DNA of 64,000 nt from an uncultured Planctomycetaceae bacterium (GTDB lineage: Bacteria; Planctomycetota; Planctomycetia; Planctomycetales; Planctomycetaceae): assembly GCA_963813715.1 (NCBI GenBank), contig CAWFAK010000007.1:672001-736000 (forward strand), in the 5' to 3' direction. Position 1 is the stretch's first letter, and every line of letters begins with the position of its first letter. Of the stretch, positions 27,578 to 44,576 are shown piece after piece. A program made the position numbers and the translations under genes. The notes below the pieces were generated by a model, which had not been told where the DNA came from, ran no database searches, and saw nothing but the letters and a program-made list of their open reading frames with translations.

Positions 27578-30500
27578 TCATTTCGTCGAGCGCAGCAAGT
27601 ACGCGAGTAGATCGCCGAGCTCAGCTGGCGTTTTGACCAAGCCGGCGGGCATCGGCGACGTCTTTTGCACGCGACGCTGTTCGACCTCCGCGACGGCCAG
27701 CGTCCGCCGCGTCGCATCAGGCAGGAGCAGCTCGATCTTGTCGGCCGTTTCGCTCAGGACAAGCCCTGTGAGCACCTTGCCGTCGCGCATCACGAACGAC
27801 GTCGCGCGGAAGACCGGCGAAACCGTGCGACTCGGGTCGAGGACCGACTCGACCAGGTAGGGAATGGTGAAGCGGGCGGCCGCTCCGGCCAGGCTCGGAC
27901 CGCCGACGGCCGCCGAGGTATCGTCGATCGCGTGACATTTCGCGCAGCCGATGCCATCGGAGCTAAAGAGCTTGCGGCCCCGTTCGGGATTGCCACGACG
28001 GGCGGCGTCAGGCCAGTTCACCGCCAGAAACTCCGGACCAATTGTGCCGCCACCCGCGCCGGCCGACTTGAGCCGACTTAACAGCGCCCCATTGTCGAAC
28101 TTCTCCGGCAACGTCGCGCTCACTTCGCGCAACGTCCGATAGTGAGCGTAGAGTTCGCAAGCCCCCTCGACGTTGTTCACGCGAAATAACAGGTCGTTGC
28201 TGCCCGGTTGCAGATCGAGGTAGACCACGTCCTGCAGCGGCAGCGCGGCGCGGACGCCGGCATATGTCCAGACAGGTTTGCCGTTCTGCCAGATCTTCAG
28301 TCCGTCGTCCGAGCCGGGCAGCAGCAGCATCTGTTGGCGAATGGGACTCGTCACACGGCAGTACGCATAGAACGACGCATCGCCCGCTGGACCGAACGCC
28401 TTGATGAAATCGAACGCCCGCTCGTTCTTAAGCGGCTGCCAGGCGAGCGTTTTGGTCAGCGAACCGTAAGTCGCCGCCAGATCGACGGCCCCCTGCTCCG
28501 GTGGATGCACCGCGGCCAGGCCCCGTCCGCTGTCGGGAAAGGGGCCGATCGCCCACGCTCGACCCATCTGCTTGAGCGGCGCGTTCACCAATCGCCGGCG
28601 TTCCGTCTGCTTCCGCAGAGCGCCAATTTCCGGCTCGGTTCGAGGATCATTGAGCAGCGAGAGAAAATAGGCGGCCTGCAGCCGGACGGGGTCGCTCCGG
28701 TCGGCCAGCCGCTCACGCAGCAACGCGAAGAGTGCCTCTTGCTCGTCCGCATGTTTCGCGGCGCGCCAATGCTCGGCCACCGTGAACAGTCCGAGGCGGC
28801 CGCGCGTCCGCAAGTCGACGGTTTCGTCGAGATACTTCACGTGATAAACGTCGCCCGTCGACCACGGAGCCAGCGGCAGCTCGGTCGGAATCGGCTCCAT
28901 CGGACGGGGAACGGTCAGGCGGAACCCCGCTGCCAGCACTCCCGCGAGACGAGTCGGCTCGTCGGCGTCCGTGCAGGTCGTCTTGAGGAATGACAGCGGC
29001 GCCCGCTCGGCGAGCACTCGCGAGGCCGATTGCCGCAAGTAGGTGTCCGTCGAGCGCGCGACCCGCGTGATCGACTCCAGCGGCACAGGCGACGCCTCGA
29101 AGAAGGCGCAGGTCGCCGCCAATGCCACCTGGGGATCGGAGTCCCTCAAATTCGCCGCGAGGGTCTGCGAGACACGCCGCGTCGCTGCCGAAGAACTCGT
29201 GCAGAGCACGGACGGCTTGCAGTCGCACGGCGGCACTCGAATCAGCCGCCAACTCGCCGAGATGGTCTCGCGCAGCGTCGGAGCGGCCGGCGGCCGTCAG
29301 CCACAGGAGATCCGCAAAGGCCACATCTGCGGACTTCGTTTTCCCCAGTCGTACCGCGGCCTGCTGGAAGCACATCCCCGCCCCGCCGCAGCAGCTCGAG
29401 ATGGGCGCGGCGTCGGACTTCCCAAACGGGCGACGAAAGATCCTGAAACAAAGCCGTTGCATTCCGCGCGGTGATTTCTGCCCGTTCCGGCTTCGGCTGA
29501 GAATCCGCTGCCCGCGGCGATAAGCGAACGAGGTCGCTGGCATAAATCGGCGAGCCTTCGTTGTGTGCCATGTAAGCGATGGTGACGTAGATCGCATTGT
29601 CGGGTGCGACCGTTACGCCGACGGGGCGAGCCTGATTTTTCCCGACGAGCAGCGGCCGCTCGTCCGCGCGAAAACTGGCGCCGCGTGGCGCAAACGGGTA
29701 TCGCATGACGGTTCGCACGCCCCACCGCGCGATCAGCAAATTGTTCCGCAACTGCTGCGGCCAGCCGGCGCCGTCGAGATACGCCTCGGCGACCGGGACG
29801 GCGCGGCCCATGCCGTTAAACATCGTTTCGAGCAAATCGGCCCGGTCCGGCGTAATGTGCGGCATCCAGCCCCGCGGCCAACCGAAGTCCGCCTGCGGCA
29901 CGACATGAATCAGCCGTCCGGGCACGTATGCGTGCGGCAGCGATTCGTGATCGTTGTCGTTGCTGAAGAGATTCCAGTCCCGATCAAAGACCAGGCCGCA
30001 CGGATTGCGGAGCCCGCGGGCGATGACGCGCAGACCGCTGCCGTCGGGATGCATCCGCAAAATCGCTCCCTGCCCCGTGTAGGGGATCCCCGCAGGTTGC
30101 GTCGGTGTGAAGAACGTCCAATGTCCCCAATGATCCGCGCGATCGAAGTCCCCGTAATGAACGAGCGTGTCGCCCATGGAAATATAGAGATCGCCCTCCG
30201 GCCCCCACGCGAGCGCGTGAAAGCACTGGTGCACGTGGTAGAGCGGGACGCCCCACAGCAGCCTTTGGGGTCGCAGTCCTTCGCGTTTCACCACGCCGTC
30301 GGGGATGACGTAGAGCGCCGAGAGCGTGAGCACATACAGATCGTTGCCACGAAAGTCGACGTCGTAGACCCAAGAGTTCGGCGGGAATCTCAGCAACTCG
30401 CGGCGCGGGGCAAATCGCCCGTTGCCCATGGGCTCGTAAACGAACAGTGCTTCCCGCCCGCCGACGAACAGCCGTCCGGTCGTGTCGCCCCGTACCGAAA

Positions 30501-30711
30501 GAAAGGACTCATTCGGCGACGAATCGAGTCGCTCCAATCGCACCTCGGGATCGACAACCGCGTAGTCCAGGCTTGCGACGGGATCCGCGACGGGGCCTGC
30601 GGAGCACGCGACGGCGCCGAAAATCAGCGCCGCCAGGCTGGCCACGGCGCCCGGCGCTAGACGACATGCGAGCACACGAGTGGATTTCAACTGCTGGACG
30701 GGGTGCGACAT
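27578..30711 (-). CDS. PVC-type heme-binding protein (dehydrogenase-like beta-propeller + HEAT repeats + cytochrome c), split by indels near 29240-29360
   Basis: 'WGPEGDLYISMGD', 'RGLRNPCGL.FD', HEAT-like 'DSSAAVRLQAVRAL', 'GNPERGRKLF...CAKCH', 'GPSL', 'ESVLDPS', 'SPMPAGL'. Confidence 0.85.
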
Positions 30712-31000: not shown

Positions 31001-32365
31001 ATGACGGGTACCCAAACTCAGGCCGCCACAAAGAGCCAGGCGGGCGGGCGTTCCGGCTCGCCGACCATGCGGCGGATCTTGCGACGAATCACCTGTCCCC
31101 ATTGCTGGGAGCAGTTCGCGCCGGAACGCATCCTCTGGATCTCCGAGCACACCGACCTGCTGGGCGATCCTCGGCTCGGTTCCGAGCATCAGCAGCGGTT
31201 CCTGCCCACGCGGTTTACGGTCGCGGGCGAAGCCATCGACGGCAAGGGGTTTCCCTGCCACTCGCTGGCCTGTCCCAAATGCCATCTCAGCGTGCCGTCG
31301 GCGCTCCTGGAAATGGAGCCTCTCTTCTTTTCGATTTTCGGCGCGCCCGCCAGCGGCAAATCATTCTTCCTGGCCGCGATGGCCTGGGAACTTCGCAAAA
31401 CGCTGCCCCTCACGTTTTCGATCGGATTCTCCGACGCGGATCCGGCCTCCAATCGCCACCTGCACGACTATGAAGAGTCGCTCTTCTCCAGCGGCTCCCC
31501 CAAGAGCCTCGTTCCGCTCGGCAGCCTGATCCGCAAGACGGAGGAGCAAGGCGACCTCTATGACACGGTGGCCTTCGGCACGCAGACCGTGAGCTATCCG
31601 CGGCCTCTGCTGTTTGCGATGCAGCCACAGTCCGGACATCCCAGCGTGGACAAGATGGATCAGCTGTCGAGAGTCCTCTGCCTGTACGACAACGCGGGCG
31701 AATCGTTTCTGCCCGGAAAGGACACAGCCGCCAACCCGGTCACGCGGCACATGGCCCAATCGCGCGTACTCTTTTTCGTGTTCGATCCGACGCAGGACAG
31801 CCGCTTCCAATTGCAGAGTGACGGTCATCGCGTGGTGCAGGAATCGTCGCGCACGTTTCGGCAGGAACCGGTGCTGCAGGAGGCGGCCGCCCGCATTCGT
31901 CGCTACGCGGGCATTCCGCAGAAACAAAAGCACCGCCGGCCGCTAATTGTGATTCTCACTAAGTTCGACGAGTGGTCCCAACTACTCGGCTCCGCCCCGC
32001 CGCCTCCACCGTGGGTTGCCGTCGACGTTCCGCGACAGTCGAAGCCGGGCCAGACGCGGCGCGTCCACGCGCTCGATCCGGCGGCGGTCGAACGTCAATC
32101 GCGCCATGCCCGCGAGGCCCTGTTGAAGCTGACGCCCGAAATCGTCACTGCTGCCGAGGGCTTCGCCGACGAGGTGATTTTCATTCCCGTTAGTGCGATT
32201 GGTTGGAAAACGCAGTGGAGCGAATCGTCGAAGCAGCTGTCCATTCGCCCGGCCGATACCGAGCCTCACTGGGCGACGGTCCCCTTCGTGTACGCTCTTT
32301 CGCGCACGACTCCCGGACTGGTTCCGCTGATCACCAGGAAGAGCAAGGACCGCCAAACCGGTTGA
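31001..32365 (+). CDS. TRAFAC-class GTPase with N-terminal Zn-ribbon (double-GTPase/conflict-system type)
   Basis: CPHC and CPKC pairs, G1 'GAPASGKS', G3 'LYDNAGE', G4 'LTKFD', G5 'VSA'. Confidence 0.85.
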   Translation: MTGTQTQAATKSQAGGRSGSPTMRRILRRITCPHCWEQFAPERILWISEHTDLLGDPRLGSEHQQRFLPTRFTVAGEAIDGKGFPCHSLACPKCHLSVPSALLEMEPLFFSIFGAPASGKSFFLAAMAWELRKTLPLTFSIGFSDADPASNRHLHDYEESLFSSGSPKSLVPLGSLIRKTEEQGDLYDTVAFGTQTVSYPRPLLFAMQPQSGHPSVDKMDQLSRVLCLYDNAGESFLPGKDTAANPVTRHMAQSRVLFFVFDPTQDSRFQLQSDGHRVVQESSRTFRQEPVLQEAAARIRRYAGIPQKQKHRRPLIVILTKFDEWSQLLGSAPPPPPWVAVDVPRQSKPGQTRRVHALDPAAVERQSRHAREALLKLTPEIVTAAEGFADEVIFIPVSAIGWKTQWSESSKQLSIRPADTEPHWATVPFVYALSRTTPGLVPLITRKSKDRQTG

Positions 32366-32417
32366 TTCGACCGTGCCGATCGCGGCAGTGCGAATTCTTT
32401 CGCGGGGCCGTAGGACT

Positions 32418-35062
32418 GTGACACAGGAACTACTCTACACGTCGGCAGCGCAAGGCTTGGACCCAGGGAGCCGCGGTTTTTGCACCGTTGTCCGCACGCG
32501 GGGCATGCCGGCGCCGCTGGCACCGCTGCTTGGAGTCGCTGAGCGGTTATCGCCCAGCCTTTGCGCTGACCGACCCGCGTGCTGCCGCAAAACCCGGTCA
32601 ACTATTCGCACGTGCGTGTGGCGGCCGGCGGAAAAACTATAGCGTCTTGTCGCGCGTGGCCGATTACGGTCTGGATTACAGTCAGCGGACCAACAAGATC
32701 GCCCACCACATCGTGTTGGCAAGCGACGAGCGGCCCGAGGCCGGGCCTGCCTGGTTGCTGGCTCAACCCGGCTTTATGGACGCCCGCTGGGACGGCCAAC
32801 CGCGCACGCTGCCAGCCGGACGCCGCGTACCGACCGGAGCCGAGCGGCCCACTGCGTGCCCCACCTGGGCCGCCGTCACGGGCGATGCCGGCTGGGCGGG
32901 CGTGCTGGCGGAGAGCTGGCTCACGGGTACGGCTACCTACCTGATATTCGAGCCCGGGACCGACACGCTCGGGCTGATCCGCGAAGCCATCGCACTCTTG
33001 CCGCCACGCAAACGCTGGGAGGCCACTTTCGCGACCTATTACACCGGCATGCCCAGCAGCGCGACCTGCAGTTGCCGATGCGTCCTGACCGACTCGCAAG
33101 AACGCCATTCAGGCGCATCGCCTGCCGAATGTGCTGCGCATCGATTTGACGCAAAAGTTGCCCGCCGACCGAAGTGGCGACCTAGTCAATGTCGCCCGCA
33201 CGGGCCCCCTGAAAAGAACTCCCACCGGCCGTTCGCAGCCGGCGCCTGCTTCGCTGCCTCACACTTCCGAAAGCGAGAGCGTGCCGTTCGCGATCCCCTT
33301 GGCAGGCACGACGCCGAGAACGCGCGAGGGCATATTACTGCAAAATGTGCCTGCGGGGCCGCCTCCTCTCGAGCCACGCATCCGCAAAGTCGAAGACAAG
33401 AAACGCGTCCCCGTTTGGGTTTGGTTGATTGCGTCGCTCTCGGCCGCCGCAGTGGTTTTCGGTTCCATTTTTCTGTACGCCGTGAACCATCCACGGCAAG
33501 CGCCAATCCAAGTGGCAGGCGGTGATGCAACAATCGGCGAGGCCAAAAAACAGGCGCCTCAACCTGTGAACGCCGGCGAGGAAAACAAGAATAAAACGAC
33601 GGAGGAGCGGAAGGATCATAAAGCACCGGCGTCCGCGAAAGCTGTCGCCACGCCACCATCGTCGACGTCAGCGAGGACCAGCGTCGCCGCCAAGGCCGGA
33701 GCGGCCGGTCCCGAAGCTGCCAATCAAGCCTCACCCACGAACTCTACGGTCGCGAAAGACCCAAAATCGGTCGAACCCCTACCCTCCACATCCCAGTCGG
33801 CAAGCGGAAAGCCAAATCCCCAGTCGACGAGCAAACCGCTCACAGTGGCGGGCATTGCTGCAAATGCCGCTCGGCCGGACGACCCAAAGAAGCCTCCTAG
33901 GCCGCCAGCCCGTACGGATCCACGGGAGACTCAAAACCCGGCCCATGGTCTTAACGCTGCCAGCGCTCCCCTAAGGCTGCCAAGCGTCTTACTGTTGCCT
34001 TCAGACCTCAAGCCCAAACAAGAGGCTACGCTGATTGCGGGAGCGGACAGCCCGGGGCAATCACGTCCGTGGTCGCTGTCGCTTTGGCTCCCGAGCGACG
34101 GCAAACAGAGCCTCAAAGTGTCGAAAGGCTCCGATACCTCGGTCGCGCTTTGTCAGGCAGCAACCGGCTCGGACGATCTTGTCAGGTTTCGGTTGAATGA
34201 TCGGACGCGCGAAATCACGATCACAGCTTCGACTCCGAGAGCCGAGGCGATCAAAGCCTTGTACTTTTGTGTTTTGTGCGTCGGCCAGGGTCACGAGCGC
34301 AAGACGTTCCAATTCTTTCGCCCATCTGTTGCGGCACCCGGTTCTCCTGCCCCAGAACACAAGCGACCTTCCTGGACAATCCCGGTCTCTGGACCGATTC
34401 AAGAGATGCCTCCTCTTGCCGTGGAAGTCGCCACGGTTCAGTTAACAAGTAAGACGTCTCAAACGACGTACGCATTTCGTCCCGAGATGGCCCAGGACAA
34501 GAAAGGAGGAGCGCTGCTGGCCTCACTGATGTCGTCAGAACTCAACCAACAACTCCTTGCGGTCACCGGCTCCAAGTCCGAACGAGCAGACATCAACCTT
34601 GCTCTACATGTAAAACAAACTGCGACATCCGTCGATTTCTGGTTCGGCTCAGAGGATATGAAGAGGCTTTTCACAGCAGTCACGAATGTCCAGACCAGTC
34701 GCCTCATCGACATCATGGTCAACTACCGTGACCCGAGCCCCGACCAATTGAAAAAGCAACACGATGAAGCCGCTAGAAACATTAAGAGGCAAAAAGGCAA
34801 TGAACGGCAAAAGGTCAGCGCGGCTCTCAAGAGCTTTCGAGACAAGCTCCAGGAGCCGCTCGATCCGGCGAAGCTAAAGAGCTTTCAACGGATTCTTGGT
34901 GACCTCGATCGCCTGCAGAATGACCTCGAACGAACCGACGGATTGCAAAACGACCTCAACGCCGCAGTGCTTAAAGGCGCGCGGTTGTTCTATCACGTCA
35001 GTGACCAGGACGGCCAAATACAAAGAAACTATGTCGTCAAACTCGAGAGCGATCTAGACTGA
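32418..35062 (+). CDS. GTPase-associated protein with GAP1-N2-like N-terminus, single TM and variable extracytoplasmic C-terminus; at least two frameshifts
   Basis: GTG at 32418 'TQELLYTSAAQGLDPGSRGFCTV', 'LESLSGYR', 'SRVADYGLDYSQRTNKIAHH', 'LLPPRKRWEATFATY', TM 'VWVWLIASLSAAAVVFGSIFLYAV', then a Pro/Ala/Ser linker. Confidence 0.7.
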
Positions 35063-35091
35063 ACCTAAGCCGACTTTCAAGCTAAGAAACT

Positions 35092-38004
35092 ATGTCCGAT
35101 CTGCGACGCATCGTCGATGAAATCCGTTTCTACCTCGACTCCAACGAGGCGGAGATGACGGAGTCGGTGCGCGAGGCGGCCAGTGATTATGCCGAGGCTT
35201 GTCATCAGGCGAATCAGCGGTTGCGGCGGTGCGGCGAGTTTTTGAATCGCAACCTGCGTTCCGAGGCGATCCAGCTCTCCGAAGCAGAGCCCGACCTGTT
35301 GGAGGCCGTTTCCACCCTCGATTTCGCCGGCCGCGAAAATTGGGACTCGGTCGTCAGTCTCTATAACCTGCCGACCGTCGAGCCGCTGTTGATGGAGGTG
35401 GCTGAGGCACTCAACGAAGCGTATGCGTTGCAGGAGCCGGTGAAGAAGCTCCTCGACAAGCATCGCTTCCTGGCGCTGTCGCGGGCTCCTCTCAAACAGC
35501 GGTTGGCCGTCTTGTGGAAGCTCGTCGAGCAGGACCCGACGATCGGCAGTTGGGAGACGGATGCCAGCGAGATGGAGCGGGTCCGGCTCCGCGAGATCGA
35601 GGCCGAGACCCGCGATGCGGTCAAGCACGTCGACGCCTCCGGCATGAGCGCGATCGCCGAAGAGCTCGAGCACGGGAAGTGGATCGAAGCGATCTCGCAA
35701 CAATTCAAGACGGCCATCGCCCAGTCCGCTCGCGAGATCACGCGGCGGGACGCACGGACGCATGTCGAAATCGTAGCGGCCGCCCTCCAAACGGCCCTGG
35801 CCGAATCCGCCTTGGAACGGGCCCGTCAGCTCAAAACTCAATGGGACGATTTGCAGGAAGCGGCCGATCTCGACGGCTTCGATCCCGTTTCACTTCGTGC
35901 TCAACCGACGCTCCGCTGGGTCGCGGAAGAAGACGCGAAGGAGGCCACGCGTCAAAAGTTGGAGAAGGCCGTCGCCTCGTTCCGGCAGCTACTCGGAGAT
36001 GAGCGCACGCCCCGCGACACGCTCGAGAGCTCGCGCGCGGCCCTGCTCCGCATTGATCCGGCGATCCCCCCGCCGCTCGAGGAACGCTTCCGTGAGCGCG
36101 TGCAGCGGATCGAACGGCGTGACAAATTCCGACGCGTGTCGATCATCGGTGCCAGCGTCGCGTCGGTGCTGGTGCTTGCCGGTCTGAGTGGGCTCTTGGT
36201 TCGGCGGTCGTTGCAGAACGCCGAGACCAGCCGCCTGGCCGACTCGCTGTCACAATCGGTCGCCGAGGGGAAGCTCGTCCAAGCGCGGGATTTCGCGAAC
36301 GAGCACCTCGACCTGGCCGGCGACGCACACTGGGAGAAAGCAGTCAACAACTTGACCGACGCGGAAGGTCAGGAAAAACTTCGCGCGGCCGACTTCTCCG
36401 GCCAGCTCGCCTCCGCCGCCAAAGCTGGGGATTACGCCGAGGCCCGTGCCAAGCTCGACAAAGCGGTGCGCCTCGCCCGGACGGAGGATGAAAAATCGCA
36501 GGCGGAGCGGTTAAGCGGGCAGGTGGAGGAACAGCACCGCAAGGACGTGACGACAAAAACCAGCGAGCTGCAGCAGCGCTTCGACGCGATCACCGCCGAC
36601 CTCCATCGTGCCCAGACCATGCACAATGTCTCCGCGCCCGCGGCGGACATCGCCGCCCTACTCTCACAGATTGGCGAGCGGTTGACCGCGCTTCGTCAGG
36701 CTGCCAGCGGCTTGGAGGGGGATTACGGATCGCGGATTGGCGTGCTCGAAACCGAGTTGAAGTCGATCAAGGATCTGGTTCACGCGGACAGCCAGAAGGT
36801 GGCGGCGCTCGACGCGATCAAACACGCCTCGCTGATTCATGCGGCCGAGGCTGACTCCGGCAAGCAAGTGAGCGACTACATTGCCGCCCTTGCCGCATTC
36901 ACGCAGGCGTTTCCCGACGATCCGCGCACTCCCGACTTTCAAGAGGTGCGGAACGAGGCGGCGCTCTACGCAGGTATCTGCGCCTGGCAGAACATGGCCG
37001 CCCAATGGAAAACGCTCAATCCCGGCGATTTAAACGATGCTCGCAAGCGGGCCGGCGAATGCGCAGAGTTTCTCAAGCAGCATGCCCAGTCGCCGGCGGC
37101 CCCACTCGTGCAACAGTATGCCGCCTTCGCGGAGGCCGTGCAGCGTCGCGAGAGCGACGGCCTGGTCACCAAGCTGCACGACTTGTTCGCCGGCCCGCTG
37201 ATGCACAATGTTCACGTCCTGCGGGACAACGAGAGCAACGCATACTATCTGAAGAACGCGGTCGACCTTTCCGGCAAGCGCTTCGCGAACGTCAAATACT
37301 TGAGCGGTTTCGGCGGCGAGGAAAAAAACAAGACCCTGCCCACCGACACGCTGACGAAAGCCGTCTCTGATCCGGCGCCGCAAAGCCCTCTCTCTGACAA
37401 GGCCCTCATTGAGCTGGCGCAACTCTCGGTCGAAAACTGGGAGCCGAGCATCGGTCATCTGGCGCATCTCGTGCTCGAGACGGACAAGCTCGACCCATTT
37501 CTCCGCTACGCGCTGTTACGGTACGTGCTGGAGTACGGGGCGGCCGGCAGCGATCTCCTCAATCCCGGGCTGCAGCAGCCGCTTGGGGTGTTGCACAACG
37601 GCTTGGACCTTTCGACCCCTTGGATGCTGCCGGATAGCGCGGCCGCAAAAAAAGCCCGCCCCGAAGCCGAGCAGGTGGTGTTCCGCATCATCGACCTCGA
37701 CAAAGCCTGGACCCAGGCCGACCGCCGTCGCGAACAGCTCGCCCAAGCGTTCTTTTGTCCTTGCCTGTTCATCGGCCGGTTGTCCCGCAACGCCGAGGGA
37801 CAATGGGGCTGCGTGACGCGCTGGACGGCAGACGGCAACTACGATCTGGTTGTGGCCGTTCCCGGAGCGAACGGCGAGCCGTCACGCTGGGAGCCGATTG
37901 GGACCGTCAAGGACGGCAAGGTAACGATCGCGCGCCAGGAACGGGCCACCGTGCTCCGCGAGGGGCGACTCATCCTTGCCCGCCCACCGGAGGCCGCCAA
38001 ATGA
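35092..38004 (+). CDS. Large helical/coiled-coil membrane protein (970 aa, one TM near residue 350)
   Basis: Intact ORF with Glu/Arg/Leu-rich helical sequence and TM 'VSIIGASVASVLVLAGLSGLLV'. Its stop overlaps the next start. Confidence 0.8.
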   Translation: MSDLRRIVDEIRFYLDSNEAEMTESVREAASDYAEACHQANQRLRRCGEFLNRNLRSEAIQLSEAEPDLLEAVSTLDFAGRENWDSVVSLYNLPTVEPLLMEVAEALNEAYALQEPVKKLLDKHRFLALSRAPLKQRLAVLWKLVEQDPTIGSWETDASEMERVRLREIEAETRDAVKHVDASGMSAIAEELEHGKWIEAISQQFKTAIAQSAREITRRDARTHVEIVAAALQTALAESALERARQLKTQWDDLQEAADLDGFDPVSLRAQPTLRWVAEEDAKEATRQKLEKAVASFRQLLGDERTPRDTLESSRAALLRIDPAIPPPLEERFRERVQRIERRDKFRRVSIIGASVASVLVLAGLSGLLVRRSLQNAETSRLADSLSQSVAEGKLVQARDFANEHLDLAGDAHWEKAVNNLTDAEGQEKLRAADFSGQLASAAKAGDYAEARAKLDKAVRLARTEDEKSQAERLSGQVEEQHRKDVTTKTSELQQRFDAITADLHRAQTMHNVSAPAADIAALLSQIGERLTALRQAASGLEGDYGSRIGVLETELKSIKDLVHADSQKVAALDAIKHASLIHAAEADSGKQVSDYIAALAAFTQAFPDDPRTPDFQEVRNEAALYAGICAWQNMAAQWKTLNPGDLNDARKRAGECAEFLKQHAQSPAAPLVQQYAAFAEAVQRRESDGLVTKLHDLFAGPLMHNVHVLRDNESNAYYLKNAVDLSGKRFANVKYLSGFGGEEKNKTLPTDTLTKAVSDPAPQSPLSDKALIELAQLSVENWEPSIGHLAHLVLETDKLDPFLRYALLRYVLEYGAAGSDLLNPGLQQPLGVLHNGLDLSTPWMLPDSAAAKKARPEAEQVVFRIIDLDKAWTQADRRREQLAQAFFCPCLFIGRLSRNAEGQWGCVTRWTADGNYDLVVAVPGANGEPSRWEPIGTVKDGKVTIARQERATVLREGRLILARPPEAAK

Positions 38005-38879
38005 CTGCCGATGCCTCCGCCGAGGACACGGGCTTCGAGCCAACCACCTATTTCGTGCGCATCCGCGGGAAAATCCACGGCCCGTTCGACGTGGAAAAAC
38101 TGAAGAAGCTGCACGCGCGGGGCCAGTTCAGCCGGGCCCACGAAGTCTCGCGGGACAAACGCTCGTGGCAGCCGGCCGGAACGCTGCCCGAGCTTTTCGG
38201 CGCGCCCGAGCTGCGCCTGCCCCAAGCGGGAGACAACGTGTTCCTGCCGGAAATCGAAGAGACGGGCGACTCGTATCAACAAACTTCCGCGCCGCCGGGA
38301 ACGGCCAAATGGTACTACAGCGTCGGGGACGAGAGGCACGGCCCGGTTCCGCTCATGGACCTGCGGCAACTCGTCGTCAACGGACAAATGTCGCCGCACG
38401 ACCTCGTCTGGAAAGAGGGACTCGAGGACTGGGTGCCCGTCGCCAATCAACCTGAGTTCCAGGCGCAAATCGGCGGTGGCGGCAACCGCTTTCAGCAATA
38501 TGCTCCGGCGATGCACGGCATGGCGGCCGCCGTGCCCCACCACCTGACTCGGACAAGCGGTCTGGCGGTGGCCAGCGTCACGCTGGGAGTGATCGGACTG
38601 TTTCCGGCAGCCTGCACTTTGTTTGTGCTCATTCCCCAAACGGCGGCGATGGCCATCGCCAGCGTGGTCCTGGGATTCGTCGGGCTCTTTCTCGGAGCCA
38701 GCAATATCTTCGCGATCATTTTTGGAGCGGCCGCGATGAAAGACATCGGCCGCGCACGCGGGTACGTGACCGGTTGGGGCCTGGCTCTCGCGGGCCTGAT
38801 CATGGGTTCGATCGGCGCCCTCGGTTGGATGTTTTGGTTGCTCTTCTGGCTGCACGTGCTGACGTCCCCTTTTGCCTAG
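38001..38879 (+). CDS. Tandem GYF_2 (DUF4339) + DUF4190 membrane protein
   Basis: 'YFVRIRGKIHGPFDVEKLKKL', 'WYYSVGDERHGPVPLMDLRQLVVNGQMSPHDLVWKEGLEDW', 'TSGLAVASVTLG', 'GWGLALAGLIMG'. Confidence 0.85.
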   Translation: MTADASAEDTGFEPTTYFVRIRGKIHGPFDVEKLKKLHARGQFSRAHEVSRDKRSWQPAGTLPELFGAPELRLPQAGDNVFLPEIEETGDSYQQTSAPPGTAKWYYSVGDERHGPVPLMDLRQLVVNGQMSPHDLVWKEGLEDWVPVANQPEFQAQIGGGGNRFQQYAPAMHGMAAAVPHHLTRTSGLAVASVTLGVIGLFPAACTLFVLIPQTAAMAIASVVLGFVGLFLGASNIFAIIFGAAAMKDIGRARGYVTGWGLALAGLIMGSIGALGWMFWLLFWLHVLTSPFA

Positions 38880-39003
38880 CGAGACCACCGATTTTGTATT
38901 GGATGCGAACCCTCGTTGCGTGAAAGACGGACCATGAGTCGCTGAGGCAAACGAGCCCACTTGGGCAGCGGCGGCGGGCGATCGATCAAGCCAGGCCAAA
39001 CGA

Positions 39004-40554
39004 ATGACGGATCAATGGTACTACCGGCAGACAGCGGCCGAGTTTGGACCCTATACGGGAGCTCAACTGCGGCAGCTCGCCCAGTCCGGCCGGATCACGG
39101 CGGCGACCCTGGTCCGGCCGGCAAAGAATGGCGACTGGATCCTCGCGTCGCAGGTGAAGAGTCTGTGGGTGGCGGACCGACCGAAAGCCGCGCGTCTCGC
39201 CAACGTGCCGCCGCCGCTACCACCCCGCCCTTCCAGCTCGGCGGCGCGCGCGACGGTTCCGGGCGACGGTCAGCCCGTCGCGCCCGCTCGCCCTCAACGG
39301 AAGAGAACGGCGATCGTGATCGGAACGTGCATCGGCGTTGCCCTCCTCGTGGCCGGCTTGCTCGTCTACCTGGCCGCGGGCCGAGCGAAAAGAGCACTTG
39401 CGGCGACCGCCGGTGCGTCGGATATCGCCGAACCGTCCCCGGTTGCCGTCGCGGAACAGGCGGGGCCGTCGCCCGCCGAGGCGGCTCTCCCGGCAAACAA
39501 CCCCGCCGCAGGGCATGGCGGCGGGTTGTCGACGGAACAGATCGTCGCGAGATGCGAGTCGGGCGTCGCACTGATCAAGGGGCGGGTTTCCAGCGGTACC
39601 GGCTTCCTGATCGCGCCGGACGTCCTGGTGACGAACAAGCATGTGCTTTCACATGAATTGATCGACCTGGTCGAGGTCTATTTCCCGTCCGCGAAGGCGG
39701 CCGAGCAGGGCCCTTTCAAGCCGACGCTGTTGCTGGACGACGAGAAGCAGGACCTCTCGGTGCTGCGGGTGAAAACCAACCTCAACCCCGTGACGCTCGC
39801 GCGAAACTATCAATTTCGACGCGGGCAGGAAATCACCGTGATCGGCAGTCCGGGACTGGGCGGAGGAGCGCTCTTGCAGAACGCTGTCAGCCGAGGGGTG
39901 ATGAGCACGGAAATTACAATCCACGGACTCCCGTATTATCAAGTCGGCATTTCCATCAACCCGGGCAATTCCGGCGGCCCCGCCTTCGATTCGGATGCAC
40001 AGGTCATCGGCGTGGTGACGCTCAAGGCGTCGGACAAAGAGGGCCTGGGCTTCTGTATTCCCGTGGCCGAAGTCCGCCGGTTGCGCGATCGGCTGCAAAC
40101 TGTGACCCAGCACGAGATCGACCTGATGCAGGCGACTCATCGCCTTCGCGTCACCTACCGGTCGATCGCCCTGTTGGGGCAGGCCTACAAGTCCGGAATG
40201 CGGCTCTACGTTTCCGCAATGCAATCCGCGATTGACCAGCAACAGGGACCCGACGCAGGCCTTTCGGCCGTGCAGGACAAGGTGCAGTCCAAGCTGCAGT
40301 CCATCGATCACGTGCTGCTGGGCGTGCTGCGAAACGAGATTCCGCACATCACGAGCGATCCGAACGTTTCCGAACCGATCCGCCAGAAGCTGGCCGACTT
40401 CTGGGCAAACTACCTCGAGATGAAGAGTTACGTCGATAATCCCCGCGGCAGTTACCTCACCTACCAGGCCAAGTGCAACGAACTGTCCGATAGTCACGAC
40501 CGCCTGTCGGAGTCGATCAAGGCGATGCTCGGCCTGGGCGACGAAGAGGATTGA
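39004..40554 (+). CDS. GYF_2 + TM + trypsin-like (S1) serine protease + helical C-terminal domain
   Basis: 'WYYRQTAAEFGPYTGAQLRQLAQSGRI', TM 'IVIGTCIGVALLVAGLLVYL', catalytic motifs 'TNKHV', 'DLSVL', 'INPGNSGGP'. Confidence 0.9.
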   Translation: MTDQWYYRQTAAEFGPYTGAQLRQLAQSGRITAATLVRPAKNGDWILASQVKSLWVADRPKAARLANVPPPLPPRPSSSAARATVPGDGQPVAPARPQRKRTAIVIGTCIGVALLVAGLLVYLAAGRAKRALAATAGASDIAEPSPVAVAEQAGPSPAEAALPANNPAAGHGGGLSTEQIVARCESGVALIKGRVSSGTGFLIAPDVLVTNKHVLSHELIDLVEVYFPSAKAAEQGPFKPTLLLDDEKQDLSVLRVKTNLNPVTLARNYQFRRGQEITVIGSPGLGGGALLQNAVSRGVMSTEITIHGLPYYQVGISINPGNSGGPAFDSDAQVIGVVTLKASDKEGLGFCIPVAEVRRLRDRLQTVTQHEIDLMQATHRLRVTYRSIALLGQAYKSGMRLYVSAMQSAIDQQQGPDAGLSAVQDKVQSKLQSIDHVLLGVLRNEIPHITSDPNVSEPIRQKLADFWANYLEMKSYVDNPRGSYLTYQAKCNELSDSHDRLSESIKAMLGLGDEED

Positions 40555-41455: not shown

Positions 41456-42859
41456 TCAGGAGTGCTCGGCTGCGGCTGCAATCGGGCACAGGCTGTTGAG
41501 ATATTCTTCGAGATTTGTGAATCCATCCCCGTCCCGATCGCCATTGCGGTCGCTGGGATCGTCTGGATTGAGTCCGTGGCTGCGTTCCCAGTCGTCGGGC
41601 ATCCCATCGCCATCGCTATCCAGGGCCGCCAGCGTGCTGCGAAGTTGGGGCCATCCGCCCACCTGGTCCTGAGAGTCGATGAGTCGGCCCGTGCGGTCGC
41701 GAACTCCCTTCACCAGCCGCTCGTCGGCGGCGTCGCGATGGAGCGACGCCCCGGCGTGTTGCAGGACGCTTTGAAAGGCTTCCATTGCCGACTGCGTCTT
41801 CGGCAAGGCCCCGTCGACGTCGAACTCGCGATCGACGCGAATTCGGTCAAGCGACATGCGGCGATAACCGCCGTCGGCCCAGCGATCGAAGGTGATCGCC
41901 AGGTAGTTGTTCTCAGTGAAGGCCGCGTTACCCTCAAACGCGTTGCCGCTGAGAAACGCCTTGAGCTGGTCCTCGGTTCCGGTCTTCGTCGCCAACGGAT
42001 GATTGCGTTTGGGCGTGTCGGGGCCGGGAAGATAGCAGTTGTTGATGAAATTGATGTGAGCGTCGCCCAGGTTGGTGGCACCACTCAGGTTGTACACGAC
42101 ATTGTCGCGGTAATCGACGATCATGCCGGGCAGCGTTTTCTCGCCGCTGGCCAGAGTCGGGTGGCGATCGCGGCTGCTGGCGAACAGGTTGTGATGAATC
42201 GAAATGTTGCCGGTGAGGTCGCGGAACGACGACAGCATCGCGTGGGTTCCCTTGGTGTGGAGACTGTGATTGAGGCACTCCGCGTAGATCGACCATTGCA
42301 GCGTGAAGTTACTTCCGCGACGCAAGTCGTGATTGCTGTCGATCCCCCAGGTCGAAGTGATGTGGTCGAAGATGACGTGGTCGACGTCGTTCGTAGTGAT
42401 GGCGTCCGGGTCGCCGTGCGGCTTGTGCTGGTCACCCAGGCGGACGCGCAGGTAACGGACGATAATGTGCGAGGCCTTTCTGATCTCGAACGTCCAATCC
42501 TTCAGACACACGCCATCGCCCGGGGCAGTTTGCCCGGCAATCGTGAGAAAGGATTTGTTTACGACGAGCGGCTTCTTCAATTCGATCGTGCCCGACACGT
42601 CAAAAACGATAGTCCGCGGACCGGAGGCCGAGCGCATGCCGTGACGCAACGATCCGGGCCCGTCGTCGTTCAAGTTCATGACGTGATAAACGTCGCCGCC
42701 GCGCCCGCCGCGTGTGAATCGGCCGAATCCTTCGGCTCCGGGGAAGGCGAGCTGCATGGGTGCGTCCGCATGCGCCGAGCGAAGCCCCGTCAACAGCAGG
42801 GCGAGAACCAGCATCCAAGTGATAAAAGGGGCCCAGCGTTCGCGAACTGTCAGGGGCAC
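41456..42859 (-). CDS. Secreted pectate lyase (parallel beta-helix) with C-terminal Asp-rich repeats
   Basis: Signal 'MLVLALLLTGLRSAHA', 'AFPGAEGFGRFTRGGRGG', 'NLNDDGPGSLR', 'TIAGQTAPGDG', 'ISIHHNLF..SRDRHP', 'DSDGDGMPDDWE', 'DGDGFTNLEEYLN'. Confidence 0.88.
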   Translation of the reverse strand: MPLTVRERWAPFITWMLVLALLLTGLRSAHADAPMQLAFPGAEGFGRFTRGGRGGDVYHVMNLNDDGPGSLRHGMRSASGPRTIVFDVSGTIELKKPLVVNKSFLTIAGQTAPGDGVCLKDWTFEIRKASHIIVRYLRVRLGDQHKPHGDPDAITTNDVDHVIFDHITSTWGIDSNHDLRRGSNFTLQWSIYAECLNHSLHTKGTHAMLSSFRDLTGNISIHHNLFASSRDRHPTLASGEKTLPGMIVDYRDNVVYNLSGATNLGDAHINFINNCYLPGPDTPKRNHPLATKTGTEDQLKAFLSGNAFEGNAAFTENNYLAITFDRWADGGYRRMSLDRIRVDREFDVDGALPKTQSAMEAFQSVLQHAGASLHRDAADERLVKGVRDRTGRLIDSQDQVGGWPQLRSTLAALDSDGDGMPDDWERSHGLNPDDPSDRNGDRDGDGFTNLEEYLNSLCPIAAAAEHS

Positions 42860-44290
42860 GAGGAATCTCCGGGCGGCAGCTTGCGTTGAGCTTCTTTCCA
42901 GATCGGCCCGTAGACTTCCTTGTCGAACGGCGGGCAACCCGTTGGGAATTGGCCAGCGGGATGAGCCCGGTTGCGCATCAGGTTGGTGCAATACGAGAAG
43001 GTTCGGCAGGTTCGACCATGATCGAGGCCGCCCTGCTCCTTGAGATTGCGCAAAATCGGGCTGCGCCAACGTCGCACGACCCAGTCCGACGATTGCGACT
43101 GAACCGTCGGTGACATTGGCCACCGCCGCCTGCAGCGCAAACTCCTGCAGCCAACTGTAGCCGCTGCCGACGACGGGCAGCTCGGGAACGGCCGCTTGAA
43201 CCGCGCGGGCCAGGCGAAAATGGCGGAGAACGCCCAACAGCGGATGTTCGGGCGCGTCGTAACCGTCGACCGGTGGATAATCGGCCGGCCGGACCACGTG
43301 CGGATTGACGTAGGGGTTGCCGGCGGTGACGTTGAGCAGGCTCACGCCGGCATCACGCAGGCGCTGTGCCAGCTCCAGGGGCTCTCGCAGATCCTCGATC
43401 TGGTGATCGTAGGGGTTGGTGCCGAACACATTTTCGAGCGGCAAGTGGTGCGGCGCCGGCTCACCGGCGGCTCCCACGGTTCCCTTGCGGTAGGCAATGC
43501 CGTCGTAGGCGTTGAATCGCGTGGCGACGATCAAAGACGGCAGCTCCTCGCGAATGCGAGCAACGATTTCCCGAACAAGCCGCGTCCGGTTCTCAAAGCT
43601 TCCGCCGAATCGGCCTGGCCGATTCCGGGCGGTCAGCAACTCCGAGAGCAAATAGCCGTGACACTGCTTGAGGTCGATGAAGTCGACGCCAATCCGGGCC
43701 GCGAGGCGTGCCGCGGCGACATATTGGTCGGCGATGCGTGCGAGGTCCTCGTCGGCGGCGAGCGGAAAGGAGTCATCGACTGGCCGGCCGCTGGCCTTGT
43801 CGATCGTGAGCGGATCGCGGATAGGATCGTGTGAAACCAGGAGCGTGCGGCGATATCCGTAGCGGCCCGAGTGCGTGAGTTGCAGACCGATCACCAAATC
43901 GTCGGCACTGCCGCACACTTCGCGATGAGCGCGGCGGCAACGGTTCAGCATGTCCTCGATCGACGCGGCTGTTCGGTCGCAGAGCCAAAGCTGACGGGGA
44001 TTGGCGCGCGCTTCGTCGCTGATCGCCGTCGCTTCGCCCCAAATCAGCTTGGCGCCGCCGCTGCCGAAGCGGACGTAGCGGCGGAAAGTCAACTCGTCGG
44101 GTCGGCCGTCGAGCGTGCCGTCGCAACCCTCCATCGGCTGAACGGCGAGGCGGTTGCCGCAGCGCTTGGGGCCGATTGCAATCGGTTGAAACAGGGCCTC
44201 GTATCGCTGGGAAAGCGACAGAGTGTGACCGAGGTGTGCGGCTTCGCTCGTCAGAGCGGCGGGCGTTTTGTAACGAAAGAAGCGGGCCAT
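42850..44290 (-). CDS. NADH:flavin oxidoreductase (Old Yellow Enzyme family), one frameshift near 43050
   Basis: 'NRLAVQPMEGCDG', 'GGAKLIWGEA', 'GLQLTHSGR', 'DLKQCHGYLLSELL', 'GGSFENRTR'. The true C-terminus is in ORF 42850-43140 ('CRTFSYCT..GCPPFDKEVY'). Confidence 0.88.
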
Positions 44291-44576
44291 GCAGCGAAAA
44301 ATCTTAGCCTCGGGTTGCCCCTCCGCCAACTCCTTCGCTTGTTGCCCGTTGGCGGCCGCATGCCTGAGCTCGGCACCGGACCACTCGCGCAAAAAAAACG
44401 CTGCCTGGGCTGACGTTGGCAAAGGGCCCATCTCTACCCAATGCCAACACAGTCCCAGGCAGCTTTCAATTAAATGTCAAGGTTTTTGATAAGGCACCGA
44501 TCAACGAACCTGAAAGGGGATCCGCTGTCGCCGGTCGCTCGGCCCAGGGCGGCGGTTGACCTAGGACCCGGAAAAC

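Follow-up and report, generated by a model that had tools for sequence, protein, structure and literature searches.

Gene organization of the locus

The window analyzed here is a 64,000-nucleotide stretch from an uncultured soil planctomycete of the family Planctomycetaceae, whose genome is 82.6% complete. Its interval 31001..40554 is wholly occupied by five plus-strand genes, and the close spacing and common orientation that a first-pass annotation had reported for them were confirmed. The first gene (31001..32365) encodes a Zn-ribbon TRAFAC GTPase, probably of DO-GTPase2 type, which is a predicted cytoplasmic switch; the second (32418..35062) a GAP1 protein composed of GAP1-N2 and GAP1-M domains, a proline-rich linker, one transmembrane (TM) helix, and a variable C-terminal domain; the third (35092..38004) a 970-aa helical single-pass membrane protein; the fourth (38001..38879), whose start overlaps the stop of the third, a predicted adaptor with tandem GYF_2 domains and DUF4190 (two to three TM helices); and the fifth (39004..40554) a protein in which GYF_2 is followed by a proline-rich linker, a TM helix, a trypsin-like serine protease domain, and a helical tail. 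We consider this operon to be real and probably intact. Contigs from an RNA run (X3) are found in all 30 of 30 bins of the locus, and such contigs cannot show transcription. The N-termini of GAP1, the helical protein, and the GYF-trypsin protein are probably cytoplasmic, given the positive-inside rule (Lys/Arg counts across the TM helix of 6 versus 1, 7 versus 3, and a weak 4 versus 3, respectively) and the absence of signal peptides.

The GTPase is 454 aa long, or 434 aa if translation starts at the ATG at 31061, and contains the motifs G1 (GAPASGKS, residue 114), G2 (KTEEQG), G3 (DNAGE), G4 (TKFD), and G5 (SAIG) as well as two CxxC pairs, all of which are invariant or nearly so among 49 homologues; the earlier description of a Zn-ribbon TRAFAC GTPase with intact G1, G3, G4, and G5 is thus upheld. 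In the alignment, the two CxxC pairs supply four invariant cysteines of N-terminal zinc ribbon(s), and the Asp, Gly, and Glu of DNAGE are invariant in the 49 rows, corresponding to the conserved Glu in the Walker B region of this TRAFAC GTPase. The DO-GTPase family suspected in the first-pass annotation is matched by this protein only below the Pfam threshold (DO-GTPase2, 18.3 bits against a 27-bit cut-off), whereas 40 of the 49 homologues match it at E ≤ 0.01 (best 5e-10). A PDB sequence search with the GTPase returned a weak EngA/Der match.

The third gene product has an N-terminal part of ~345 aa, predicted to be cytoplasmic, a TM helix at residues 351-369, and a long helical C-terminal part, and it has no significant Pfam match and belongs to no Pfam family. 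In the predicted model (pLDDT 87, pTM 0.50), a helical bundle or rod lies on either side of the TM helix and is accompanied by small C-terminal beta domains; the previous label "coiled-coil" does not describe this all-helical bundle or rod, which is not a simple coiled coil. Because the versions in three loci (L116, L132, and L129) end just past the TM helix, the N-terminal part appears to be the indispensable one. A profile of this protein detected 30 genomes at E below 1e-20, 27 of which, by a manual count, are also on the GTPase list; in a representative library it matched 2,166 clusters (E up to 1e-30). We regard the protein as a core subunit of the system. Weak matches in ~70 genomes (E above 1e-12, mostly over residues 330-450) were discarded as generic matches to TM flanks. 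Structure searches with the model were uninformative: Foldseek returned generic helical bundles only (best E 5e-4, TM-score under 0.15), and the best VIA hit (Z 12.6) was a plakin/spectrin-repeat fragment over residues 410-568, from which no family was assigned. The ESM Atlas gave one match (0.78), to a planctomycete cluster.

The GAP1 reading frame and its variable C-terminal domain

The GAP1 gene lies directly downstream of the GTPase gene, and its product matches Pfam GAP1-N2 (48.6 bits) and GAP1-M (43.1 bits) above the cut-off of 24, so the GAP1-family membership on which the first-pass proposal depended is established. GAP1-C has no Pfam match at E ≤ 0.1, either in the GAP1 pieces of this locus or in three intact GAP1 proteins, and its place is taken by the TM helix and the variable domain. 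In this assembly GAP1 is not a single ORF: from its GTG start at 32418 the frame shifts four times, at single-base indels near 32529, 32588, 32637, and 33102, that is, four within 600 bp. This split frame had not been mentioned in the first-pass annotation. All four indels are absent from Illumina contigs of two runs from two other studies (X1 and X2), which carry the same GAP1 C-terminal allele at ~97.5% identity, and X3 contigs lack two of the four; in the sister genome G002 (locus L001), GAP1 is one intact ORF. The rpoC gene is also frameshifted in the same assembly, and an upstream heme-protein gene, which is an open frame of 1041-1099 aa in four of five congeners, is split here. Given the indel-free X1 and X2 contigs and the broken rpoC, the GAP1 frameshifts are most likely sequence errors of this assembly, a strain-specific pseudogene being the less likely alternative.

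The region 33482..35062 of GAP1 is hypervariable and consists of a low-complexity spacer, a beta-rich part, a helical hairpin, and terminal strands; its location is probably periplasmic. Over the last 340 GAP1 residues the identity to L001 is 20%, against a shuffled mean of 19%, while the same pair of loci shares 98% identity in the GTPase, 97% and 94% in the helical protein, and 94-98% overall in the flanks. DNA alignment to L001 is absent over 33214-35092, and GC3 is 0.61 in the variable region versus 0.77-0.79 in the other four genes. In view of this near-shuffle identity next to 94-98% identical neighbors and the low GC3, the C-terminal domain is likely a swapped allele of a recognition domain. 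Among close pairs of loci, the GAP1 C-terminal region always loses identity fastest, and 57 GAP1 C-termini fall into 42 BLASTP clusters. A profile seeded from the GAP1 C-terminus of L005 finds those of both this locus and L001 with zero reversed decoys, so that these, at least, are one family. No usable match for the variable domain was obtained in the ESM Atlas.

GYF proteins, the trypsin-like protease, and a candidate proline-rich ligand

Pfam searches confirmed the two GYF proteins described previously (2xGYF_2-DUF4190 and GYF_2-TM-trypsin). The fourth gene product scores 93 bits for GYF_2, of which it has two domains, and 41.6 bits for DUF4190; the fifth exceeds the cut-offs for GYF_2 and Trypsin_2, has its TM helix at residues 103-121, and retains the catalytic residues H213, D250 (by motif position), and S323 in a trypsin domain that is predicted to be periplasmic. 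A trypsin gene is linked in 14 of the 51 loci that could be scored downstream, compared with ~1.4% expected from the trypsin density of this genome, a comparison in which the loci are kin and not independent. Its sequence linkage marks the protease as an accessory part of the system, probably an accessory output. The protease output envisaged in the first-pass annotation is therefore present here, but it is accessory, and a motor trio (see below) is the commoner companion. Across the loci, the fusion partners of the GYF domains are DUF4190, TM2, trypsin, a T2SSE-type ATPase (L116 and L132), and an FHA-ABC transporter (L051).

The cytoplasmic linker of GAP1 contains a PPPL motif (33359..33370, +), which is a candidate GYF ligand. 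Of 68 cytoplasmic GAP1 linkers, 24 contain PPxL, and shuffled linkers give 7.1 (maximum 16 in 500 shuffles); of 58 post-TM linkers, 3 contain it, and shuffling gives 3.1, so that the enrichment is confined to the cytoplasmic side; the motif was picked after viewing the sequences, five motifs were tried, and the loci are kin. According to passages of PMC11135422, the bacterial GYF domain of Myxococcus GltJ binds a proline-rich sequence, as measured by ITC and NMR, which makes docking of GYF domains onto the linker reasonable. This analogy, the varied GYF fusions, and the motif enrichment lend indirect support to a role of the GYF domains as adaptors.

Conservation and distribution of the system

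The GTPase search yielded 63 loci, and 31 more regions were cut around genome matches, one of which is a duplicate of L001; L134 and L014 were also dropped as duplicates. The GTPase, GAP1, and helical genes were found together in 62 distinct loci, the exceptions being L060, which has the GTPase only, and L108, a distant type without the helical gene. Eleven of the 62 loci have under 2 kb of downstream sequence and were left unscored; a GYF gene is present in 49 of the 51 with enough sequence, and among loci with over 2 kb downstream GAP1 is missing only in L060. The order GTPase-GAP1-helical-GYF recurs (profiles were built from the loci), and the co-conservation of the first three genes is far beyond chance. 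Thus, four of the five genes joined in the first-pass annotation are kept together, but the trypsin gene is not.

The distribution of the system is patchy. It is present in 10 of 41 relatives, in 5 of 11 congeners, and in 30 of 401 Planctomycetota genomes (~7%, two of them weak matches), or 26 of 382 high-quality ones. The versions of the congeners are 49-50% identical to this one and are placed elsewhere on the tree. In an empty-site comparison, the two flanking genes proved non-adjacent in four of five congeners, the four that hold both, and hence no insertion site was defined. Many relatives have a lipoprotein-like upstream gene, which was not found in this genome.

A defense context, which the first-pass annotation had considered alongside envelope remodelling, did not emerge from PADLOC. 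None of its models matches the four core proteins, and among 113 neighboring ORFs from 24 loci (crude ORF picks) only five have matches at E ≤ 1e-15, all of generic kinase, helicase, or ATPase type, which indicates that these systems are not residents of defense islands. The operon contains no nuclease, NADase, or pore-forming effector.

A motor trio in related loci and its absence here

A MotA/TolQ/ExbB-family (PF01618) gene is present in 36 of the 51 loci and represents the commonest output. Wherever the locus sequence extends far enough, it is followed by genes for two single-TM coiled-coil proteins, which are paralogues of each other (hhalign, 99%), each with an invariant Asp in its TM helix. 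The AglRQS complex likewise comprises a TolQ-like motor with two TolR-like partners. PDB sequence searches gave no match for the motor protein (motor A) and coiled-coil noise for one partner (motor C), and fold searches with a model of the latter, dominated by coiled coil, found nothing specific.

Profiles built from the relatives' loci show that the trio is absent from this locus. In a genome-wide search with the motor A alignment, two motor-positive controls scored 451-465 bits, whereas no cognate motor A emerged from this genome or from 11 other carriers (53-83 bits or nothing), the best match in this 82.6% complete genome being an 82-bit unlinked paralogue. Four of the 11 other motor-less carriers are single-contig, 99-100% complete genomes, and motor-less carriers retain the core genes. 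Besides this genome, at least four other lineages are without the trio. On a quick GTPase tree of 51 rows, the motor-less state needs 11 changes, six of them forced by starred branches; on a second tree, from which long-branch and genome-unchecked rows were left out, it needs six changes when only the nine genome-checked rows are used, and a single motor-less clade is rejected (AU p 0.002). On the unrooted tree, this locus belongs to a set with 99% support that comprises 15 motor and three motor-less rows, and its nesting in a mostly motor-bearing set makes loss the likelier direction; the GTPase sequences thus suggest that this lineage likely lost the trio. It is possible that a motor is supplied in trans by another trio (C15), against which stands the presence of the C15 paralogue in a genome (G008) without the system. 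Trypsin is linked in 6 of the 15 motor-less loci and in 8 of the 36 with a motor (Fisher p 0.30), which does not support a replacement of the motor by the protease.

Relationship to known systems

GAP1-N2/DO-GTPase systems were defined computationally, as predicted conflict systems directed at invaders, by Kaur, Burroughs, Iyer, and Aravind in 2020 (PMC7159879). In the main-text sections of that paper, they combine a Zn-ribbon TRAFAC GTPase bearing a Glu after Walker B with a directly downstream GAP1-N2 and GAP1-M gene, GAP1 may be fused to a TM segment, planctomycetes are among the hosts, and some planctomycete systems have a pair of GYF domains fused to trypsin or to a TM-rich region, all of which agrees with our locus. 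The match of GAP1 HMMs and the co-conserved core genes bear out the earlier family call of a GTPase plus GTPase-associated-protein system, and by sequence the cluster is a planctomycete GYF subtype of the GAP1-N2/DO-GTPase systems. The GYF/trypsin variant noted in the first-pass annotation does exist, but it is not new, since this type of gene cluster, including GYF-trypsin and GYF-TM genes, is already in print in outline in the same sections.

Several features differ from that description. The published systems include an FNIII-repeat gene and GAP1-C, neither of which was found here (FNIII was sought in the five proteins with Pfam and in the helical model with fold searches), although the same sections allow a TM-fused GAP1 in place of GAP1-C, as in our case. 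The third core gene is instead the helical TM protein, the variable part is the C-terminus of GAP1 itself, and the GYF-TM and GYF-trypsin genes co-occur. The main-text sections do not describe the helical gene, and the main text contains no mention of MotA, ExbB, TolQ, or ExbD; Figure 6B and the source-data PDF may show the helical as well as the motor genes. The passages of PMC12505986 do not describe this motor trio. What our analysis adds is the helical core subunit, the swapped GAP1 domain, the motor trio in relatives, the alternative GYF outputs, and PPxL, and the locus itself offers a motor-less, protease-bearing state, a swapped allele, and a candidate GYF ligand. Our literature search found no experimental study of any DO-GTPase system, and two later preprints, in the parts available, only mention DO-GTPases.

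Two further systems are comparable in part. In the Myxococcus Agl-Glt gliding machinery (GltJ with ZnR-GYF, the MglA GTPase, and AglZ), according to passages of PMC11135422, a GYF adaptor on a membrane protein recognizes a proline-rich ligand under a small GTPase. The likeness extends to the loci of relatives, where a TolQ-like motor and its two partners join the operon. In contrast to Agl-Glt, the GTPase is of a different family, no Glt or AglZ homologues were seen in the loci, and this genome has no cognate motor; we therefore treat the likeness as analogy and not as membership. The motor A of relatives weakly matches ZorA (E 2e-5), and Zorya, whose ZorA and ZorB form an anti-phage ion motor, is similar in that a membrane motor is tied to a defense-like system. 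However, the linked motor A lacks the ZorA tail, its coiled-coil partners have no OmpA match, there is no ZorC, ZorD, or ZorE, the motor is missing from this locus, and the core has no PADLOC matches.

Possible functions of the operon

The reading that we favor, and to which we give about an even chance of being correct, is that the operon is an inner-membrane sensor-switch-effector directed against invaders. Its basis is the combination of a constant core with a variable module, the patchy spread, the range of GYF fusions, the proline-rich ligand of the GltJ GYF domain, the PPxL enrichment, the trypsin linkage, and the family match to the systems of Kaur et al. We infer all of its signalling steps around an observed conserved core, an exchanged GAP1 C-terminus, and a linked trypsin. 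The periplasmic domain of GAP1 would bind a fast-changing foreign partner in the periplasm, such as the ejection conduit of a phage or a protein of a predator or rival; the signal would pass through the TM helix, so that GAP1-N2/M and the N-terminal part of the helical protein control the GTPase; the switch would then expose or release the PPxL linker of GAP1, to which the GYF domains would bind; and the resulting clustering would switch on the GYF cargo, here a periplasmic protease whose targets may be the intruder itself or envelope proteins of the host cell. In most relatives, a MotA/ExbB-type ion motor would be driven instead or in addition. Several observations weigh against such a conflict system: its commonest output, the motor trio, fits mechanical envelope work equally well; the core has no PADLOC match, the loci lie outside defense islands, and no classical effector is present; the FNIII protein and GAP1-C of the family, as given in the main-text sections of Kaur et al., were not found; and PPxL was chosen post hoc among kin loci of a group for which we found no experimental study.

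Should the sensor-switch-effector reading hold, planctomycetes would possess a variable receptor in the periplasm that is connected to exchangeable effectors. We tentatively extend it to a broader scheme, which we think less probable, in which the core is a plug-in envelope immune receptor that connects an allele-cassette periplasmic domain through the GTPase and a proline motif to interchangeable GYF-tagged outputs, namely a protease, a MotA/ExbB-type motor on two different axles, a pilus-type ATPase, and an ABC exporter. In that scheme the receptor-type defense would act in the periplasm, before invader DNA or toxin enters, and this locus would be its minimal, protease-only form. DO-GTPase systems have been predicted since 2020, and this locus is a compact version that lacks the motor and has a predicted protease as its catalytic readout; it also offers a candidate sensor swapped in nature and, in GYF and PPxL, a candidate pair of adaptor and ligand.

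A serious, if rather unlikely, competitor is an Agl-Glt-like machine of the envelope that would serve adhesion, movement on surfaces, export, or uptake, and of which this copy would be a reduced form. In it, a helical rod spanning the periplasm would be pulled by the GTPase switch, the GYF adaptor, and a TolQ-like motor acting with a pair of TolR-like proteins, and specificity for a substrate or surface would come from the variable domain. The PF01618 protein and two single-TM Asp paralogues in 36 of 51 loci, which reproduce the parts list of MglA/GltJ/AglRQS, the coupling of GYF to a pilus-type ATPase or an ABC transporter elsewhere, and the position of the loci outside defense islands are all consistent with such a machine, but a search for the cognate motor A found none in this genome or in 11 other carriers that have kept the core, only ~7% of Planctomycetota genomes carry the system, and an arms race better explains the exchange of alleles at near-zero identity.

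It is improbable that the operon serves self/non-self (kin) recognition among rosette or biofilm partners, with the variable GAP1 domain as an allele-specific tag of identity and the GTPase-GYF-protease set as response. Allele-level swapping of the GAP1 domain would suit this function, as would the enrichment of GAP1-N2 systems in multicellular or aggregating bacteria listed in Table 1 of PMC7159879; however, GAP1 is a predicted inner-membrane protein, the operon encodes neither an outer-membrane nor a secreted partner, and this genome did not yield the lipoprotein-like gene that lies upstream in many relatives. Least probable is a decaying relic, inactive after motor loss and with GAP1 a true pseudogene, for which the four clustered frameshifts, the missing trio, and an IS630-like element in the upstream region of the sister L001 might speak, but X1 and X2 contigs of the same allele (~97.5% identity) are free of all four indels, this assembly also breaks rpoC and a neighboring gene, several lineages have motor-less operons whose genes are full-length, and for the sister strains this possibility is largely refuted.

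Possible exchange tracts, and mobile elements, around the GTPase system

Contigs from two Illumina runs of other studies (X1 and X2), which are about 97.5% identical to the window, break near the end of GAP1 (window 34634-35608 region), and the listed substitutions that separate these contigs from the window cluster within the helical gene's first 500 bp. These breaks, together with the substitutions at the start of the helical gene, hint that exchange tracts extend beyond the variable domain of GAP1 (33482-35062). In the sister genome (locus L001), a transposase that we take, from its motifs, to be IS630-like is inserted directly upstream of the GTPase (L001:8568-9744) and is absent from the window. 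A distant GAP1-N2 system of the congener G005 (L108) lacks the helical gene and is followed by a DDE transposase.

Relatives of operon components in the source genome

A stand-alone paralogue outside the operon, with GYF (30.6 bits) and trypsin (164 bits) matches within one frame, was detected on the minus strand of contig C16 of the source genome (G000), and thus the GYF_2-TM-trypsin gene of the operon may have been recruited from a wider family. Contig C15 (about 91870-97980, equivalent to L133:3872-9982) carries a B-C-A trio akin to the motor genes of relatives but unlinked to the operon, whose partners have an Asp-bearing TM, one of them with a long glycine-rich extension, and whose A gene is frameshifted and has a long C-terminal tail. 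An A protein with a similar score is present in G008, a genome without the GTPase system. Many motor-bearing operons have a small lipoprotein-like gene upstream of the GTPase (such as L016:9386-9940 and L030:9279-9938), and no homologue of it was found in G000. Gene breaks in the G000 assembly should be distrusted: the split heme-binding protein gene (window 27578-30711), an apparent oxidoreductase/lyase-like fusion (window 41456-44431) and rpoC (G000:C9:456683-460787) are all frameshift artefacts.

Variant architectures in relatives

Short versions of the system, in which GAP1 and the helical protein each end right after their own TM helix, were observed at L116:9559-15057 and L132:642-6436, and in both loci the next gene encodes GYF fused to a T2SSE/pilus-type ATPase. 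Other variants include a GYF-FHA-ABC transporter fusion (L051:10388-13330), an 836-aa GTPase fused to FHA (L126:5239-7746), and an additional GAP1 gene lying upstream of the operon (L114:2207-4819).
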